A stretch of DNA of 32,542 nucleotides. Source: Burkholderiales bacterium. Lineage in GTDB: Bacteria > Pseudomonadota > Gammaproteobacteria > Burkholderiales > Burkholderiaceae_E. Where the stretch lies: positions 1 to 32,542 of the forward strand of contig JANORY010001020.1 of NCBI GenBank assembly GCA_031415535.1. The letters run 5' to 3'. Positions 3,816 to 16,080 of the stretch are shown here, in pieces. The translations under genes were made by a program, and so were the position numbers. The stretch's first letter is position 1, and each line of letters opens with the position of its first letter. A model generated the notes under the pieces. That model was not told where the DNA came from. It made no database searches and was given only the letters and a program-made list of their open reading frames with translations.

Positions 3816-4429
3816 AGCGATCGATCGTATTAGCTTGTTCGCTGGTCGCGGCGGGTTGTGCGACACCACCGGCCGTCTTTCAGCTTGCCGAAAAGACCGC
3901 CGAAGGCGCCGGCCAGTTCGTCGTACATTTGAATCGTCTCGAACAACACTATCAGGATATCGCCCGACAGCGCATGGATCTGGTCGTTCGGCGGGAGGCT
4001 GGGACCCGACAGTTCCAGGCGGATCTCGCCCGATACCGCGCGATCAATGCTGGCGGCGGTGGTCAGACCGATCAGAGCCGTTGGGTAGATTCCAAACTGC
4101 AGTTGTTTTCGCAGTTGGAGACGATTCAGCGCGAGGCGCTCAAGGATGATGCTTCGCGCAGCCGCGACCTGTTGGGAGGTCTCGTGCCCATCAAACCGTA
4201 CAGCGAAAAGCTGATGGAGATCGGCAGCGCGCTGGCGACACAAGGCACCGCCGACTCAAAGGAGCAGCGTTTGCGGTTTTTGGCGGGGTACCTGAAAGAG
4301 GTCCGAACGGACCTTAAATCGGCGCTGAACGAAGACAACGCGCTGGCGCAGTCTGCTTCCACCCTGATCGACAGCGCGAAGGCCGACCTGGAGTCGGCTT
4401 CGGCGAAATTGAAAATCGAGAAAAAGTAA
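3812..4429 (+). CDS. Hypothetical 205-aa predicted lipoprotein, helical; no domain recognised
   Basis: ORF 3680..4429 is trimmed to the ATG at 3812, which overlaps the upstream stop (ATGA). MKRSIVLACSLVAAGCATPP is a textbook signal peptide plus lipobox. The rest is rich in charged helix-forming residues. Confidence 0.7.
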   Translation: MKRSIVLACSLVAAGCATPPAVFQLAEKTAEGAGQFVVHLNRLEQHYQDIARQRMDLVVRREAGTRQFQADLARYRAINAGGGGQTDQSRWVDSKLQLFSQLETIQREALKDDASRSRDLLGGLVPIKPYSEKLMEIGSALATQGTADSKEQRLRFLAGYLKEVRTDLKSALNEDNALAQSASTLIDSAKADLESASAKLKIEKK

Positions 4430-4840: not shown

Positions 4841-5817
4841 GCACTTAATCCGACCTCGGATAGTCCCTGGTGCACGTTCGAGCGACCCAAGATGATCCGT
4901 TCGTTGCTCAACCGCTTCGACGGATCTGCGCCGTCGCGAGCTCAACGATCTGCTCTGGGATTGGCACATGTATGCAGAAAGTTTCCGTAGTGATGACTTT
5001 GCCAGCCACTTACTTGGAACTCGCTAAAGAGGCGGAAACGTCCAAGAACCGCATCTGTCCAAGAACAGGATCTTGACAAACCGACAACCTCTTTTCGAAT
5101 CGGGCGGTTCGAGCCGTTCACCTCTTTCAGGGTCTCGGCTCGCTGTGCCACTGCATAGAACGCAAATGGTCCGCTGGACCATACGGCCAGCAGCATCTGC
5201 ATCTAGTTAGAGCGCCCGCCGCTCTGGAGCCTCAAGTTCGATTCATCAGTTTTGGGGATGTCAATCTCGCGCTTGGGGTGCATACTCAGAGTGCCATTCT
5301 CCGAACAATTCGCGCGGCGTGTCGGCATCGAGTAAAAGCTGAAATCCACTGCGAATACCCGTTTGCGTGGGCCGAGCGGCACACCGATTCGAGCGCGAAA
5401 AGTTCATTCAGTCTCGGGCCTGCGGGCTGAGTCCCTGCGCTTGGCAATCAATCCACGCGCCGGTTACTGCCGACAGGTAGCGACACCACGCAAAGCATCG
5501 GAGAAATTCTTCGGAAACGAGCACCGGTCAGCACTCCCGGGGACCGATTCGAACTTGAGGCCGATCGAGCGACCCGCGCCGCACCGAAAATGCGAACCGA
5601 AAGTTGCGCTGACCCAATTGAACACAGTACGTGGGACGTACTGTTGTAACGTTCAGTCCAGTAGGGGATGCCTGAGCCAAACGGTTCACCGAGGTGGCCT
5701 GATCCGATGAATCCAATTCGTGCATTCAGGTTCTCGGTGTGGCTTCCGTTGTTGCACTTCGGATATTGATTCTCCGGCAGTCTTGATTGCTTGCGATATC
5801 AATCATGCAGCCTTAAT

Positions 5818-6426
5818 TTAGGCGAATTCAACTTCATTTGCCGCCAATCGTCTGCGCAGCTCCGCCAGCATTTCCTTCTCCGTGAAATTCATTGCCCAAG
5901 CCGGTCGCAACTGAAAGTGCGGCTGATCGACAAACGAAGTCCAGTTTCCACCCCACTCCAGCCCGAGGTCAACGCCGAGCACGCCCACCGCTTTGTATTT
6001 GGGCGATTCGCCCAGGTACCTGTTGCCGGCGAACACGCCGACGTCAAAGGCGATGCCAAAGTTGTGGTTGGAGAATCCGCCCTTGGCATTTGTCACAATC
6101 GGCCCTGGCTTGCTCCGGCCCTTAGCGAACAAGGCGTCTTGCTCGGCAAAGGTGCGCGAGCCGCCTATGATTTTGATTTGCACACCGACGCTCGCCGCCT
6201 TTTGCACTAGCGCACGCGCCATCGGTCTCACGACCGGCAGTAAGGTAGCGATGTTCAGTTCGCTTCGGTCGTCGACCTGCGTAATCGCCAGTTCGGGCGC
6301 TTTGCCGGCGATCGTCGGTTTGACGATTTTGGCGTAGATCGCGCCCCAGGTTTCAGCGCCGGCATGGCCATCGACCTGAACGCCCAGCTTCTTTTGCACA
6401 GCCGCAATCATTGCCTGGATTTCCAT
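5818..6426 (-). CDS. Phage-type endolysin: N-terminal peptidoglycan-binding domain (PG_binding_1-like) plus a zinc M15-family peptidase (L-alanyl-D-glutamate / D-Ala-D-Ala peptidase type)
   Basis: ORF 5818..6489 is trimmed to the ATG at 6426, with GGAGG (6435-6431) 4 nt upstream. MEIQAMIAAVQKKLGVQVDGHAGAETWGAIYAKI matches the PG-binding repeat (LxxDGxxGxxTxxA). The catalytic part has SNHNFGIAFD (His and Asp zinc ligands), WGGNW and DQPHFQL (second His), typical of M15 endolysins. There is no signal peptide. Confidence 0.85.
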   Translation of the reverse strand: MEIQAMIAAVQKKLGVQVDGHAGAETWGAIYAKIVKPTIAGKAPELAITQVDDRSELNIATLLPVVRPMARALVQKAASVGVQIKIIGGSRTFAEQDALFAKGRSKPGPIVTNAKGGFSNHNFGIAFDVGVFAGNRYLGESPKYKAVGVLGVDLGLEWGGNWTSFVDQPHFQLRPAWAMNFTEKEMLAELRRRLAANEVEFA

Positions 6427-6467
6427 AGGGCCTCCTTGACTCGGTGTTTGACAGACCATAGTAGTGC

Positions 6468-6739
6468 GTGCAGATCGCGGGCGCATCACCTGTCTTTGGG
6501 AGGTCTCGGCACCCTAAGCCGGTGAACTTCTTCAGCCGCGCCGATCTCGCCAAACACGTGCCCGAGTTGAGCGCCTCGGCGCTGTCGCGCAAATTGCTCT
6601 GGCTGCGCCAGCATCATCTGATCAAGAAGTCGCTCACACCTATCGCTACTACATCATTCGCATCGGTCGTGCCGCGATTGCCGCTGCCTGCTCGCTCACT
6701 GAATTCAACATCATTCCGGCAATCGCCCATGTTCGTTGA
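6468..6739 (+). pseudogene. Frameshifted, N-terminally truncated fragment of a conserved winged-helix-like hypothetical protein
   Basis: Frame A reads ...FFSRADLAKHVPELSASALSRKLLWLRQHHLIKK. A shift near 6629 puts the sequence in frame B, which reads VAHTYRYYIIRIGRAAIAAACSLTEFNIIPAIAHVR and stops at 6737-6739. The joined sequence resembles a C-terminal module (...LRLLR.HGLIKKV..THRY.LT..GR.AI.A...) that I recall from hypothetical proteins often found near mobile DNA. I cannot name the family. Confidence 0.35.
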
Positions 6740-6906
6740 ATTCTTCTCAGTAAACGTGATGATTTATTTGCTTAGAGACTCAGCTAGTTGATTTGCGGGC
6801 CGCAGGCTTGCTTTCCAGCAACCCCGCGAGTCCATCCGACACACTTTATGCTGGACATGTGTACAGTGTCGGTTTTCGAACGATCCGAAGCGTACACCGT
6901 TTCAGC

Positions 6907-7183
6907 TAGTGTAGTGTTTCATTAGTTCCGTGGCGAAAGATTCGATTCAAACGGCGATGAGCGCGCGGTCGATCCGCAGGGGTCGATATCGGGGATATCA
7001 ACCCCTGCGGGCGAGCGTGTGGGCGCGCCGTTTGATCGAACCCCTGCGGGGCGAGGTGAAATGGGGGCGACTGCGGCGTTACGAACCCGGGTCAATAGCC
7101 CCGCTCTTGACCCGGAACCGCGCCTTGCATTCGCCCCCATTGCACCTCGTCTTTCGCTACGGAACTAATGAAACACTACACTA
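6907..7183. repeat. 277-bp element bounded by a 34-bp inverted repeat (33/34 complementary) with nested long internal hairpins; MITE-like, inverton-like or structured-leader element overlapping the start of the downstream helicase gene
   Basis: The left arm is 6907-6940 (tagtgtagtgtttcattagttccgtggcgaaaga) and the right arm is 7150-7183 (tctttcgctacggaactaatgaaacactacacta). The only mismatch is G6932/T7158. Internal hairpins are 6974-6990/6994-7010 (17 bp, one mismatch, GGG loop) and 7052-7070/7131-7149 (19 bp, one mismatch). The motif aacccctgcggg occurs as a direct repeat at 7000 and 7039. Confidence 0.85.
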
Positions 7184-9549
7184 ATCCCCTTGAAGAAGCG
7201 ATCTACACGGTCGCCGTACGCGAGCTTTGCGAGTTCGCCGCCAAAGAGGGTGATCTCGACCTCAGGTTCACGCCCGCGCCAAATGCCCAGGAAGGTATAG
7301 CCGGCCATAAAGTGGTGGCGGCGCGGCGTGGTGCTTCCTATCGTACTGAACTCGCGCTGAGCGGCCGGTACAGACAGCTTTTGGTGCGCGGTCGGGCCGA
7401 TGGCTATGACGTCGAACGTAACCTGCTGGAGGAATTCAAGACCTTCAAGGGTGACCTGGAGCGCATGCCAGCCAACCATCGCGCACTGCACTGGGCTCAG
7501 CTCAAGGTATACGGCTGGTTACTGTGTGACCAGTCGGCATTGCCGACAGTTTCGCTCAGTTTGGTCTATTTTGAAATTGCCAGCCAGCAGGAAACCACGC
7601 TGACCCAGCAATTCACCGCCGCCGAGTTGAAGCACTATTTTGAGTCACTCAGTGAACGCTTTCTGGGCTGGGCGCACGGCGAACTCGAACATCGAAGCGG
7701 TCGGGATTGTGCGCTGAATGCGTTGCGCTTTCCGCACTCGTCGTTTCGCGCCGGCCAACGCAGTCTGGCCGAAAACGTATTCCGGGCCGCCCGGCACGGC
7801 CGCTGCCTGCTGGCACAGGCACCCACCGGTATCGGTAAAACCATCGGCACCCTTTTTCCGCTGTTTAAAGCCGCGCCGGAACAACAACTCGACAAGATAT
7901 TTTTTCTCAGCGCCAAGGGTACCGGCCGAGAAGTGGCCTTGCAGGCAATCGGCAAAATCAGCAACGATGAATCGGCAATCAAAATACGTTGGCTTGAGTT
8001 GGTCGCTCGTGAGAAAGCCTGCGAGCATCCCGACAAAGCCTGCCATGGTGATTCGTGCCCGCTTGCCGAGGGCTTTTATGATCGATTGCCGCGCGCACGC
8101 GCCGCCGCCGTGGCGAACGGTCGTCTGACGCAAGCGGTGTTACGCGACATTGCGCTGGCCCATTCGGTATGCCCCTATTATTTGAGTCAGGAACTAGTTC
8201 GTTGGAGCGACGTCGTCGTCGCCGACTACAACTACTATTTTGACGATAGCGCATTGCTGCATGCGCTGACCTTGACCAATGGCTGGCGTATCGCGGTTCT
8301 GGTCGATGAAGCACACAACCTGATCGAACGCGCCCGCACCATGTACAGCGCCACGCTGTCGCAGTCGGATCTGCACTCGATCAGCCGCTCGGCTCCCGAC
8401 CCGCTACGCTTGCCGCTGCAACGGCTCAATCGCGCCTGGAAAACCTTGACCAAGGACCAACTCGAAGACTATCGAGCGCACTCGGCGCTACCGCTTAAAT
8501 TCATCGCCGCATTGCACGCCGTTGCCGGTTTAATGGGTGATCTGCTGGCCGAACCTGGCCGGCAACCCGACGAAGCTGTGCTGCGCGACGACGCCCTGCC
8601 GCTCAACGACGCCCTGCTGCGTTTCCATTTTGACCTTCTGCACTTCATCCGGATGTCCGATCGCTTCGGCGAGCATTCATTATTTGATGTCCAACTCGCG
8701 CCAGACCCGGCCCGTGCAACGCGCCGTCAAGTATGCTCGACCGTGTGCCTGCGCAACGTCATTCCCGCGCCGTTTCTGCAACCGCGCTTTGCGGCGGCCC
8801 ATACGACCGTACTGTTCTCGGCAACCCTGACTCCGACCCGCTTTTATACCGATACGCTCGGATTGCCCGATGATGTTGCCAGCGTGGAGGTCGACTCACC
8901 GTTCGGGTCTGCGCAATTATCGGTGCAATTGATCAGTACAATCTCAACCCGATTCGAGCGGCGCGATCGGTCGCTGGAGCCGATCGCAAGCTTGATCGCA
9001 ACTCGTTACAGTGAACGACCCGGCAATTACCTGGCGTTCTTCAGCAGCTTCGATTACCTGCAGCGGGTTGCCAGTACCCTCGCGACTCAGCAACCCTTGA
9101 TACCGATCTGGCAACAATCACGCGCGATGAATGAAGCTGATCGGCAAGCCTTTCTAACGCGCTTTACGGAACACAGTTACGGCATCGGATTTGCAGTGTT
9201 GGGGGGACTCTTTGGCGAGGGCATTGACCTGCCAGGTACCCGCCTGATCGGCGCATTTATCGCGACCCTCGGTTTGCCTCAGTTTAATCCCGTCAACCAG
9301 GAAATGCGGCGACGAATCGACTCATTGCTGGGCAGCGGTTACCAGTACACCTATCTTTTTCCTGGCCTGCGCAAGGTTGTCCAGGCTGGCGGCCGCGTGA
9401 TTCGAAACTCGTCGGATCGCGGCCGACTTTTTCTGATTGATGATCGATACGCCCAACCAGAGGTGCGGGCATTGCTGCCTGCCTGGTGGTCGGTGGTCGA
9501 TCAAGTCAGCAGCCAGCAGCGGCCTTCAATCCCGCTCGCACAATCGTAG
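7168..9549 (+). CDS. Fusion protein: N-terminal PD-(D/E)XK (RecB/Cas4-like) nuclease domain plus a DinG/XPD(Rad3)-family superfamily-2 DNA helicase with a 4-Cys Fe-S module
   Basis: The ORF is 793 aa. Nuclease motifs are GRADGYD, LEEFKT (ExK) and QLKVY (QxxxY). The Walker A motif is AQAPTGIGKT. The four Cys residues lie in ACEHPDKACHGDSCPLAEG...VCPYY. The DEAH box is LVDEAHNL. C-terminal helicase motifs are GGLFGEGIDLPG and QAGGRVIRNSSDRG. Confidence 0.9.
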   Translation: MKHYTNPLEEAIYTVAVRELCEFAAKEGDLDLRFTPAPNAQEGIAGHKVVAARRGASYRTELALSGRYRQLLVRGRADGYDVERNLLEEFKTFKGDLERMPANHRALHWAQLKVYGWLLCDQSALPTVSLSLVYFEIASQQETTLTQQFTAAELKHYFESLSERFLGWAHGELEHRSGRDCALNALRFPHSSFRAGQRSLAENVFRAARHGRCLLAQAPTGIGKTIGTLFPLFKAAPEQQLDKIFFLSAKGTGREVALQAIGKISNDESAIKIRWLELVAREKACEHPDKACHGDSCPLAEGFYDRLPRARAAAVANGRLTQAVLRDIALAHSVCPYYLSQELVRWSDVVVADYNYYFDDSALLHALTLTNGWRIAVLVDEAHNLIERARTMYSATLSQSDLHSISRSAPDPLRLPLQRLNRAWKTLTKDQLEDYRAHSALPLKFIAALHAVAGLMGDLLAEPGRQPDEAVLRDDALPLNDALLRFHFDLLHFIRMSDRFGEHSLFDVQLAPDPARATRRQVCSTVCLRNVIPAPFLQPRFAAAHTTVLFSATLTPTRFYTDTLGLPDDVASVEVDSPFGSAQLSVQLISTISTRFERRDRSLEPIASLIATRYSERPGNYLAFFSSFDYLQRVASTLATQQPLIPIWQQSRAMNEADRQAFLTRFTEHSYGIGFAVLGGLFGEGIDLPGTRLIGAFIATLGLPQFNPVNQEMRRRIDSLLGSGYQYTYLFPGLRKVVQAGGRVIRNSSDRGRLFLIDDRYAQPEVRALLPAWWSVVDQVSSQQRPSIPLAQS

Positions 9550-14376: not shown

Positions 14377-15939
14377 TCACCGCTGCGGCGACTCGGCACG
14401 AACCACACGGGTGGCTTGCACCTGGCCGGCCCCGAGGATCATGTCGGTAACCCGCAAGGTATCACGTGCCCGATCCAGCAGATCAGCCAAGTCACCACGC
14501 TGCCAGGGGCCGTCGGTCAATATCCAATCACCGCTGTCGCCAGCCGGCGCGACCTGTGCTACCTCTATAGGTGCCAGCCGATTGCACAGCAAGTCGAGTC
14601 GCTGCCTGCTGCGAAAGCGCTGCCCGGGTCCCAACTCAAGGCGCAGACGCGGCAAGCTACGCAGTGCTCCTTGGGCGTAGTGGTCAAGCAAACAGGCGAC
14701 CTCGGGATCAATCACCAATATTCGGTCGCCGGCCCGCGCGCGCTGCGCAATATCAACGATGCTGTTGCTCCAGGGTCGCTGTTCGGCACGCCCGTTGACA
14801 TAGTCCCAACTGGTGAATAGACAGATTGTTACCCATGCAGCGCTGGCAATTCGGATTGCCGGACTCTGCCATTGCAGGGTGACGGCGGCACAACCCAACA
14901 ATATGGCCAGCGGAATCCACAGCCATAACGCGGTTCGGGACAATAAAATCGGCTGAACCAGCGCCGCCAGCACCAGGAACGTAGCACCGGTCACAGCCAT
15001 GACCACACCGATCGACATCACTGCGGCTTGCCTGCGCACTCGGTACGCGCTGAAAACCAAACTGGCCACGATCAAGGCGACCATCGGCCACGCGTACGTC
15101 AAGCCCCAGTAATGCGAACCCAGCATGATTTCGCGAACCAGCCTGGACAATACGATCGGGCTGAACGATGACGGAATCCAGGCGAGACCCAGTCGATTGG
15201 TTGCGAGTACGCCACTCGCCGCCATCACCTGCGGCAAACATAACAAGGCCACCACGCAGCAGGTAGCGAACCAGACCAGGAAGTACTGTTTGCCGGCTCG
15301 TGCGGCCCATCCAAAGTACAGACCGGCCACCGCCAGGCTGGTGATGAACACGATCGACGTGGTGTGCGTATAAAACGCCGCCACCGCCGCGAGCACCATC
15401 GGCCAGAGAAGCTGTAAAACCGCGGCAACGCCGTATGTTCGCTCGGAGCGCCACGCGGTCAACGCATTAACAAACGCCGAAATTGCAATCGCTATCCAAC
15501 ACTGCTGCAGTGCATAGGGGCGAATCTCAAGCGAAAATTCCAGCCCCAGGGCGGGCAGCAACCAGGCCAGCAACGCTACCGCCCCGGCGATCGGACCGGC
15601 CAGCCCACGCGTCGCCCGATAAACAAAAATGGCCGCCAGGCCGGTCAGTAGTAACGAGAACAAGCGGCTCGAAAGCTCCGAATCGCTGACCACCCGAATC
15701 CAGGCCCAAAGCGCTGAATAATACAGCGGCGGACTCGACTCCAGACGCCAACCTTCGCCCCACAATTGCGCCAACATCAGCCGCGCGTGATAGAGCGAAA
15801 ACGCCTCATCAATCCACAACGAAGGCATTGCGATCAGCGGCAGGCGAGTCAGCCATAACAAGACGGCGACCGAAATCAAGATCGCGAACAGCCGCGATGA
15901 TTGATGCGAGTGGTCTGCGCTCGGGGGTGCTGAAGGCAT
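14377..15939 (-). CDS. GT-C fold polytopic membrane glycosyltransferase (ArnT / PMT_2, GT39/GT83-like) with a C-terminal soluble domain
   Basis: ORF 14377..16065 is trimmed to the ATG at 15939, because the upstream part of the ORF reads through the tRNA-Thr gene and its terminator. The first loop carries WIDEAF (acidic DE motif) and PPLYY. About 11-12 hydrophobic helices are followed by a soluble tail of about 150 aa. There is no obvious SD, so the start is uncertain. Confidence 0.7.
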   Translation of the reverse strand: MPSAPPSADHSHQSSRLFAILISVAVLLWLTRLPLIAMPSLWIDEAFSLYHARLMLAQLWGEGWRLESSPPLYYSALWAWIRVVSDSELSSRLFSLLLTGLAAIFVYRATRGLAGPIAGAVALLAWLLPALGLEFSLEIRPYALQQCWIAIAISAFVNALTAWRSERTYGVAAVLQLLWPMVLAAVAAFYTHTTSIVFITSLAVAGLYFGWAARAGKQYFLVWFATCCVVALLCLPQVMAASGVLATNRLGLAWIPSSFSPIVLSRLVREIMLGSHYWGLTYAWPMVALIVASLVFSAYRVRRQAAVMSIGVVMAVTGATFLVLAALVQPILLSRTALWLWIPLAILLGCAAVTLQWQSPAIRIASAAWVTICLFTSWDYVNGRAEQRPWSNSIVDIAQRARAGDRILVIDPEVACLLDHYAQGALRSLPRLRLELGPGQRFRSRQRLDLLCNRLAPIEVAQVAPAGDSGDWILTDGPWQRGDLADLLDRARDTLRVTDMILGAGQVQATRVVRAESPQR

Positions 15940-15974
15940 TGGCAAAGTTAAAAAAAGCGGCAACCGATTCGTGT

Positions 15975-16002
15975 AAAAAGCCCCGCTACTGCGGGGCTTT
16001 TT
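15975..16002. terminator. Rho-independent, potentially bidirectional terminator just 3' of tRNA-Thr
   Basis: aaaaa-gccccgc-tact-gcggggc-ttttt: a 7-bp GC stem (15980-15986 / 15991-15997) flanked by an A-run and a T-run. Confidence 0.75.
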
Positions 16003-16004
16003 AC

Positions 16005-16080
16005 TGGTGCCGGCTACAAGAATCGAACTCGTGACCTTCGGTTTACAAAACCGCTGCTCTACCAACTGAGCTAAGCCGGC
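16005..16080 (-). tRNA. tRNA-Thr (anticodon UGU), with encoded CCA
   Basis: The reverse complement is GCCGGCTTAGCTCAGTTGGTAGAGCAGCGGTTTTGTAAACCGAAGGTCACGAGTTCGATTCTTGTAGCCGGCACCA. It folds into a 76-nt cloverleaf. The acceptor stem is GCCGGCT/AGCCGGC, the D stem is GCTC/GAGC, and the anticodon loop is TTTGTAA (TGT at positions 34-36). The T arm is ACGAG-TTCGATT-CTTGT. Confidence 0.93.

Follow-up and report, generated by a model that had tools for sequence, protein, structure and literature searches.

The 32,542-nt window (the whole stretch of DNA that was analysed) is a core-chromosome segment carrying the his operon, murA, tatABC, petABC (cytochrome bc1), sspB, and a gene for a DegP-type protease. 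It also encodes a nuclease-helicase whose nearest named relatives belong to Betaproteobacteria/Burkholderiales, and the start of this gene lies in one arm of a long inverted repeat with a folded interior. The features of the region are listed below from left to right; L001, L002, L015, L016, and L017 are orthologous loci.

6851–6866, + strand: conserved box CTGGACATGTGTACAG, LexA-box-like (CTGN-N8-ACAG), now separated from the open reading frame (ORF) by the MITE
6899–6901, + strand: position of the ancestral GTG start, now GTT; L001, L015, L016, and L017 have GTG at the same spacing from the conserved box
6907–6908, no strand: left copy of the target TA; C6906, just before it, is the C of the CTAG target
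6909–7181, no strand: element proper, 273 bp, read as a non-autonomous MITE; absent from the orthologous site of L001, L002, L015, L016, and L017
6909–6940, + strand: left terminal inverted repeat, GTGTAGTGTTTCATTAGTTCCGTGGCGAAAGA; its minus-strand outward ATG (6922–6920) gives MKHYTS* only
6941–7149, no strand: GC-rich interior, with no second copy in the window and no relation to the interiors found in other family members
6941–6957/7026–7040: interior stem enclosing the hairpin 6974–7010
7041–7051: small interior hairpin
7052–7074/7127–7149: interior stem enclosing the hairpin 7087–7115
7150–7181, + strand: right terminal inverted repeat, holding a weak Shine-Dalgarno-like GGAA (7161–7164) and an outward ATG
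7168–7170, + strand: presumed present start codon of the helicase, provided by the transposon end; element plus TA make up codons 1–5 (MKHYT)
7168–9549, + strand: nuclease-helicase of the DinG/Rad3 (XPD-like) type, 793 aa, intact ORF (Pfam DEAD_2 and Helicase_C_2; NCBIfam rad3/DinG)
7182–7183, no strand: right copy of the target TA; the next base is A7184, where L001 has G

The arms at 6907–6940 and 7150–7183, described in the first-pass annotation as complementary at 33 of 34 positions, were reproduced by a repeat finder (34 nt, 97%, spacing of 209 nt). The outer TA of each 34-nt arm belongs to the target duplication described below, and the terminal repeats of the element proper are 32 nt long. 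It had also been claimed that such a repeat could not arise by chance. In agreement with this, when a 25-nt arm probe was used with up to three mismatches, the two arms were the only matches in the window, and none was obtained in 100 dinucleotide-preserving shuffles. In the interior, the 17-bp hairpin at 6974–6990/6994–7010 (94%, loop of 3 nt) and the direct repeat at 7000 and 7039, which reads AACCCCTGCGGG, were found again. Two further stems were present but longer than first described. The stem given as 19 bp (7052–7070/7131–7149) extends over 23 nt at 7052–7074/7127–7149 (91%), and the stem given as 7 bp (7087–7093/7109–7115) extends over 13 nt at 7087–7099/7103–7115. The minus-strand mirror mini-ORF MKHYTS* in the left arm was also present, as was the ATG at 7168 within the right arm, which opens the 793-aa ORF. 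None of the ORFs inside the element matched Pfam. For the plus and minus strands of a 291-nt stretch, folding energies of −197.8 and −187.5 kcal/mol were obtained, with z scores of −17.0 and −16.6 vs shuffles, respectively. Such strong folding on both strands is expected of a DNA palindrome and, alone, is no pointer to an RNA function.

A search of a 5.8-billion-protein collection returned one close relative of the helicase, P0002 (91% identity), the next being at 70%. Public assemblies contained no exact match to the helicase or to the peptidase encoded upstream of it. The contig of P0002, L001 from a JGI metagenome, was used for comparison of the site, with a separate alignment for each of the two window flanks. 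Left of the element, the sequence up to 6908 aligned through L001 3921 (...CCAGCTA), and the right flank (from 7182) started at L001 3920 (TAGTCAGCTT...). On removing 6909–7183 from the window, one unbroken alignment with L001 was obtained. The uninterrupted site of L001, ...CCAGCTAGTCAG..., contains a single TA inside CTAG (3919–3922), while the window reads C-TA-(273 bp)-TA-A, with two copies of the TA that L001 has once. The TA target duplication, which had been suspected from the outer ends of the arms, was thus confirmed by the single TA in L001 and the TA on both sides of the element in the window. Aligning the orthologous helicase loci, a check proposed earlier, further revealed that the element, left arm included, is absent from all five loci, namely, L001 and the more distant L002, L015, L016, and L017. 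Because L001 and these four loci lack the element, its insertion is derived in the lineage of the window. The contig carrying the NIPSNAP neighbour (L018, 4.4 kb) ends within the helicase, short of the insertion site. With terminal inverted repeats, a TA duplication against an orthologous empty site, and a small, transposase-free body, the unit has the properties of a MITE. The 273-bp unit is very probably a MITE inserted into the helicase gene, with the ATG of its terminal repeat now supplying the start.

The insertion site lies at the very beginning of the ancestral gene. In L015–L017, the called start is a GTG located 32–33 nt past the conserved motif, and in L002 an ATG takes this position. 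In the case of L001, reading from GTG 3912 yields GTG CCA GCT AGT CAG... (M-P-A-S-Q-L-K-E-V-I-Y-T-V), and the CTAG target is GCT-AGT, codons 3–4 of the ancestral ORF. The old start has been lost in the window, where the old frame reads GTT TCA GCT AGT GTA GTG TTT CAT TAG, with the stop inside the MITE at 6923–6925. The right repeat runs ...GGAACTA ATG AAA CAC TAC AC/T A/AT CCC CTT GAA GAA GCG ATC TAC ACG, which gives MKHYTNPLEEAIYTV in frame with the gene. Downstream, no further in-frame ATG, GTG, or TTG occurs before codon 49. In a 15-sequence alignment, invariant residues appeared from Y13 (Y13, V17, R18 ... H47), and the D78/E89/K91 nuclease motif is among them. As no other in-frame start precedes codon 49, yet conservation begins at Y13, ATG 7168 is the only usable start. 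Judging from the sequence, the helicase protein, if made, would start in the transposon end. The possibility that MKHYTN... was the native N-terminus, raised in the first-pass annotation, did not hold, as the orthologs start at GTG and MKHYT is derived from the transposon.

From these results, the following course of events emerges. The MITE entered the TA of CTAG at codon 3/4 of the DinG/Rad3-like gene, duplicating the TA and severing the ORF from its GTG start, its short native leader, and the LexA-box-like upstream motif. Each terminal repeat of the MITE family bears an outward ATG (ATG AAA CAC TAC AC/TA), and with the CTAG target in the frame xCT-AGx, this ATG automatically comes to lie in frame. 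MKHYT- now stands in place of M-P-A-, the conserved protein from Y13 on is untouched, and translation would begin at ATG 7168.

The sequence upstream of the insertion was compared among the same loci. The motif CTGGAYATGTGTACAG was found in five of them (window 6851–6866, L001 3864–3879, L015, L016, and L017), 32–33 nt before the GTG start, and L002 keeps only its core, ACATGTGTAGAGTGTCGG. This conserved box is probably the native operator/promoter region. Apart from one deviation, CTGGAYATGTGTACAG looks like the LexA box of proteobacteria, CTGT-N8-ACAG, and the LexA-box-like motif suggests SOS control of the helicase, as for E. coli dinG. The proteins P0002 (820 aa, L001) and P0003 (777 aa, L002) were called from upstream ATGs inside this conserved regulatory motif, the called-start regions being L001 3861–3911 and L002 4881–4922. 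Their N-termini are probably over-extended, with the true starts at GTG 3912 in L001 and ATG 4923 in L002; the L001 start was placed there because of the N-terminal alignment and the spacing from the motif. Further upstream, a terminator-like hairpin at 6792–6806 (TTTGCGGGCCGCAGG, then a T-rich tail) lies right after a 107-aa ORF (6468–6791) with no Pfam match, and its position points to separate transcription of the helicase.

The expression of the helicase is uncertain because a read-through leader would bury ATG 7168 in the 34-bp helix. The native leader is about 30 nt long; thus, a transcript from the native promoter region must include the whole element. Transcription would still start from the upstream native promoter, giving an mRNA leader of about 300 nt that contains the whole element, and the 34-bp terminal-repeat stem would sequester the ribosome-binding region. 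In a modelled transcript (6867–7257), the mean unpaired probability of positions −15 to +6 around the ATG was 0.001, compared with 0.34 in the native leader of L001 and 0.72 when the left arm was left out. The weak Shine-Dalgarno-like GGAA stands just 3 nt before ATG 7168. A consensus scan of 6400–7400 on both strands found no sigma-70-like promoter, which is weak evidence in a genome of 58% GC. The folding model makes structure-limited, reduced translation likely, and expression would be either reduced or reliant on co-transcriptional ribosome loading or on cutting of the stem by RNase III. Transcript hairpins of the Correia elements in Neisseria are known RNase III substrates (PMC2649163; PMC10969869).

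The same features bear on a different explanation, in which the insertion did no more than inactivate the helicase. That the ATG is in frame would then be a coincidence of the target frame, translation would be blocked by the helix and the loss of the native leader, and the ORF would be intact through recency. The fully paired ATG region in a read-through leader, the weak and closely spaced Shine-Dalgarno stretch, and the absence of a predicted promoter in or near the element agree with a knock-out. So does the age of the event. As the arms are still complementary at 33 of 34 positions, the insertion is recent and young relative to the split from L001, from which the helicase is separated by a dS of 0.20. 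Unique changes at otherwise conserved sites numbered nine in the window and five in L001, a trend in the same direction without significant excess. Against a knock-out, the gene runs for 2.4 kb without a stop or frameshift, and the old GTG has already decayed to GTT, while the new ATG and its frame are intact. The dN/dS of 0.19 between the helicase and its L001 counterpart also speaks against it, but this low value reflects mostly the time before the insertion, so the figures are no proof of selection after it. The helix itself could be bypassed by co-transcriptional translation or RNase III processing. Weighing both sides, a plain knock-out was considered possible but rather unlikely, and an insertion whose terminal repeat furnishes the start codon remained the preferred reading.

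To find further elements with the same ends, an exact 19-mer scan with TAGTGTAGTGTTTCATTAG was performed on one genome per species from 185,579 species. Five loci were obtained, each with an inverted partner of the 17-nt end, either 138 bp away (the four Nitrospira copies) or 271 bp away (L006). Their positions are as follows.

L004 4977–5114; L005 2183–2320; L007 405–542; L008 2053–2190: 138-bp elements on four separate contigs of the MAG Nitrospira sp. UW-LDO-01
L006 4588–4858: 271-bp element in the Thermoanaerobaculia MAG ant_bin.664

The L006 contig is truly Thermoanaerobaculia-like, as the best named matches of its lysS lie there. With the single copy in the window's own 32.5 kb, the same ends surround three unrelated interiors in three phyla; the match to the window's element is confined to the terminal 18–21 nt (GTGTAGTGTTTCATTAGT..). 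The outward ATG was kept in 12/12 ends examined, including a Nitrospira arm that differs at 3–4 of the 17 other positions. All four Nitrospira copies are flanked by C-TA...TA-G, while the two sides of the L006 copy read TA-G and CA; over all copies, the outer base fits C-TA...TA-G on 11 of 12 sides. On sequence grounds, this pattern fits a MITE family that is defined by a putative transposase-binding end and mobilised in trans. The MITE reading offered in the first-pass annotation was therefore supported both by the empty site in L001 and by five elements with the same ends and flanks in other genomes. As for the search for copies elsewhere that it had recommended, these five same-ended elements were the positive outcome, while a metagenome scan with a 20-mer gave no true copy; BLAST of the whole element against plasmids gave one short, irrelevant match only.

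Several other matches to the end sequence were rejected. The metagenome match L003 to the 20-mer GTGTAGTGTTTCATTAGTTC was attributed to chance, as it lies in an AT-rich coding region and has no partner. BLAST of the arm against plasmids gave a 22/23 match to TAGTGTAG-GTTTCATTAGTTCC in Vibrio chromids, at L009 3000–3022 in the case of Vibrio sp. THAF64. This match is solitary, with no inverted partner within 3 kb, and is either a chance match or a decayed solo end. A viral scan with a 17-mer yielded five solitary matches in phage contigs of 29–35% GC, again with no partner; these appeared chance-like, though one follows TA. In addition, the 138-bp Nitrospira element contains a GC-rich segment, GTTCGCCCTGAGCTTGTCGAAGGGC, which we take to resemble a repeat motif that gives spurious 'FDKLRANG' peptides in many environmental genomes.

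Understanding which transposase could have moved the element requires a closer look at its target. Elements of the IS630/Tc1-mariner group use TA as their target and duplicate it on insertion (PMC2170065), and IS630 prefers the TA in 5'-CTAG-3', according to Tenzen & Ohtsubo (1991) as cited in PMC2170065. Flanks of the form C-TA...TA-G/A border the element in the window and four of the other five copies. Duplication of the TA inside a CTAG site is an IS630/Tc1-mariner signature, and the transposase was probably of the IS630 type, an assignment made from the target and the duplication only. The 273-bp MITE would have been mobilised in trans, most likely by a transposase of this IS630/Tc1-mariner type. 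The earlier statement that the window has no recombinase or transposase gene was upheld, as no such domain was detected in its 26 larger ORFs. Likewise, no autonomous element with these ends, and hence none with a matching IS630-family DDE transposase, was found in the genome, metagenome, and viral scans (exact 17–20-mers) or by plasmid BLAST; exact scans of this kind could miss a diverged parent element. The end sequence GTGTAGTGTTTCATTAGTTCC had no match in the searchable literature or in the plasmid and phage collections. The GTGTAGTGTTTCATTAGTTCC-type end thus appears to be an undescribed MITE end common to a betaproteobacterium-like genome, a Nitrospira MAG, and a Thermoanaerobaculia MAG, and its presence in three such genomes implies a widely travelling transposase.

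With G as the first base of the element and C as the last, the flanks cannot separate a TA duplication from a 4-bp CTAG duplication, and C-TA-G...C-TA-G also parses as the latter around TGTAG...CTACA. The MITE could accordingly belong to an IS5-type (or other CTAG-duplicating) family, with the element at 6910–7180 and a 4-bp CTAG/CTAA duplication. IS5 duplicates 4-bp YTAR targets, and IS5-family ends typically start with G. CTAG stands directly before TGTAG in 6/6 copies, and the sequence after CTACA is CTAG in four copies and CTAA and CTGG in the other two, which speaks for this parsing. However, the G and C beside the TA are invariant in 12/12 ends, as if they were the element's own, where a YTAR target would give some A or T. 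Moreover, the element would start with T rather than the G typical of IS5-family ends, and the preference for TA within CTAG is documented for IS630, as far as the reference list of PMC2170065 indicates. An IS5-type origin was thus considered unlikely, and a 6-bp NCTAGN duplication (IS481 type) was excluded by the mismatch between its outer N bases. The IS630-type MITE remained the working assignment.

Two other readings of the repeat had been offered in the first-pass annotation, namely, an inverton-type switch and a structured leader RNA that locks the ATG. The corresponding rival explanation is that the repeat forms an invertible promoter switch or a dedicated cis-regulatory leader under selection for control of the gene. 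Although 209 bp directly upstream of the gene lie between the arms of a 34-bp inverted repeat, the structure is extreme (z = −17), and the ORF would survive inversion, both are highly improbable as explanations of the repeat, since the element is absent from five of five orthologous loci, a target duplication flanks it, the same transposon end surrounds unrelated sequence in other phyla, no recombinase in the window and no promoter-like site inside the element would serve an inverton, and no Rfam family reached its gathering score in the window, as a known leader RNA would. A permissive E-value over 6700–7300 brought up only spurious microRNA-hairpin matches far below that threshold, and the orthologous leaders are about 30 nt long and lack the element. 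Regarding the proposed leader RNA that locks the ATG, the physical locking is predicted if transcription reads through, but the RNA is not a conserved one. The predicted structured leader would be a side effect of the MITE insertion.

The Thermoanaerobaculia copy allowed the start-supplying role of the repeat to be considered in a second gene. This copy (L006 4588–4858) lies directly upstream of lysS (4845–6470), whose deposited product, P0121 (541 aa), is read from the in-frame ATG of the terminal repeat. The lysS homologs are shorter by 12–20 residues, and their lengths are 505–530 aa. An in-frame GTG at 4881, codon 13 of the L006 lysS ORF, has GGAG upstream and fits the homolog length better. 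Based on this comparison, GTG 4881 is likelier to be the native lysS start than the terminal-repeat ATG. Both ends of the family carry a short purine-rich stretch followed by ATG-AAA-CAC-TAC-AC/TA. Since an intragenic CTAG lies in frame only as CTA-G or xCT-AGx, about half of the insertions, in either orientation, would give an in-frame start. If the terminal repeats were portable outward translation-start cassettes, downstream gene fragments would gain an in-frame start and the cost of insertion would be lowered; we regard this generalisation to the whole family as doubtful.

In its overall properties, the element resembles bacterial MITEs derived from IS630/Tc1-mariner transposons. Like those, the family members are short (138–273 bp), end in long inverted repeats, encode nothing, and duplicate the TA of a CTAG target, and in the Nitrospira MAG four copies occur in one genome. 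They differ from those MITEs in that no cognate IS630-family transposase was found and in that the same ends enclose three unrelated interiors in three phyla. The Correia repeat-enclosed elements (CREE) of Neisseria offer a second comparison. They likewise have a TA duplication and terminal repeats that pair in mRNA, and they lie beside or at the starts of genes whose expression they affect (PMC2649163; PMC10969869), but there is no sequence similarity. Correia ends together with TA create outward promoters, whereas the end of the window's element supplies an ATG. The stem is also longer in the window's element (34 bp vs about 26 bp), and its interior is GC-rich with multiple hairpins. Third, Rickettsia palindromic elements and intragenic ERIC are MITEs incorporated in frame into genes (PMC10969869). 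As in those cases, a mobile repeat joined a host coding sequence without destroying it. The Rickettsia and ERIC elements are translated through as internal peptides, whereas only the last 14 nt of the window's element are coding, replacing the start and the first three residues. A terminal repeat that takes the place of a start codon is thus a variation on the known in-frame incorporation of MITEs and involves no new principle.

The helicase insertion is an ordinary kind of event and leaves the current understanding of MITEs unchanged. It would nevertheless provide a clean, dated case in which a MITE decapitated a DNA-repair gene that was then re-capped by the transposon end, with the empty site in a sister lineage. 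For annotation purposes, the MKHYT N-terminus of this helicase is to be treated as derived from the transposon.

Two minor observations were made in the window. A tRNA gene at 16008–16080 on the minus strand (Rfam, 69.4 bits) is overlapped by a 562-aa ORF with no Pfam match (14377–16065, minus strand). In addition, P0002 carries a 12-residue insertion, ALLPDNALLRDK, relative to the helicase of the window, at residues ~500–505 of the latter (about 8665–8685 in the window). This segment is absent from all more distant homologs and has the character of a variable, repeat-like, clade-specific linker.
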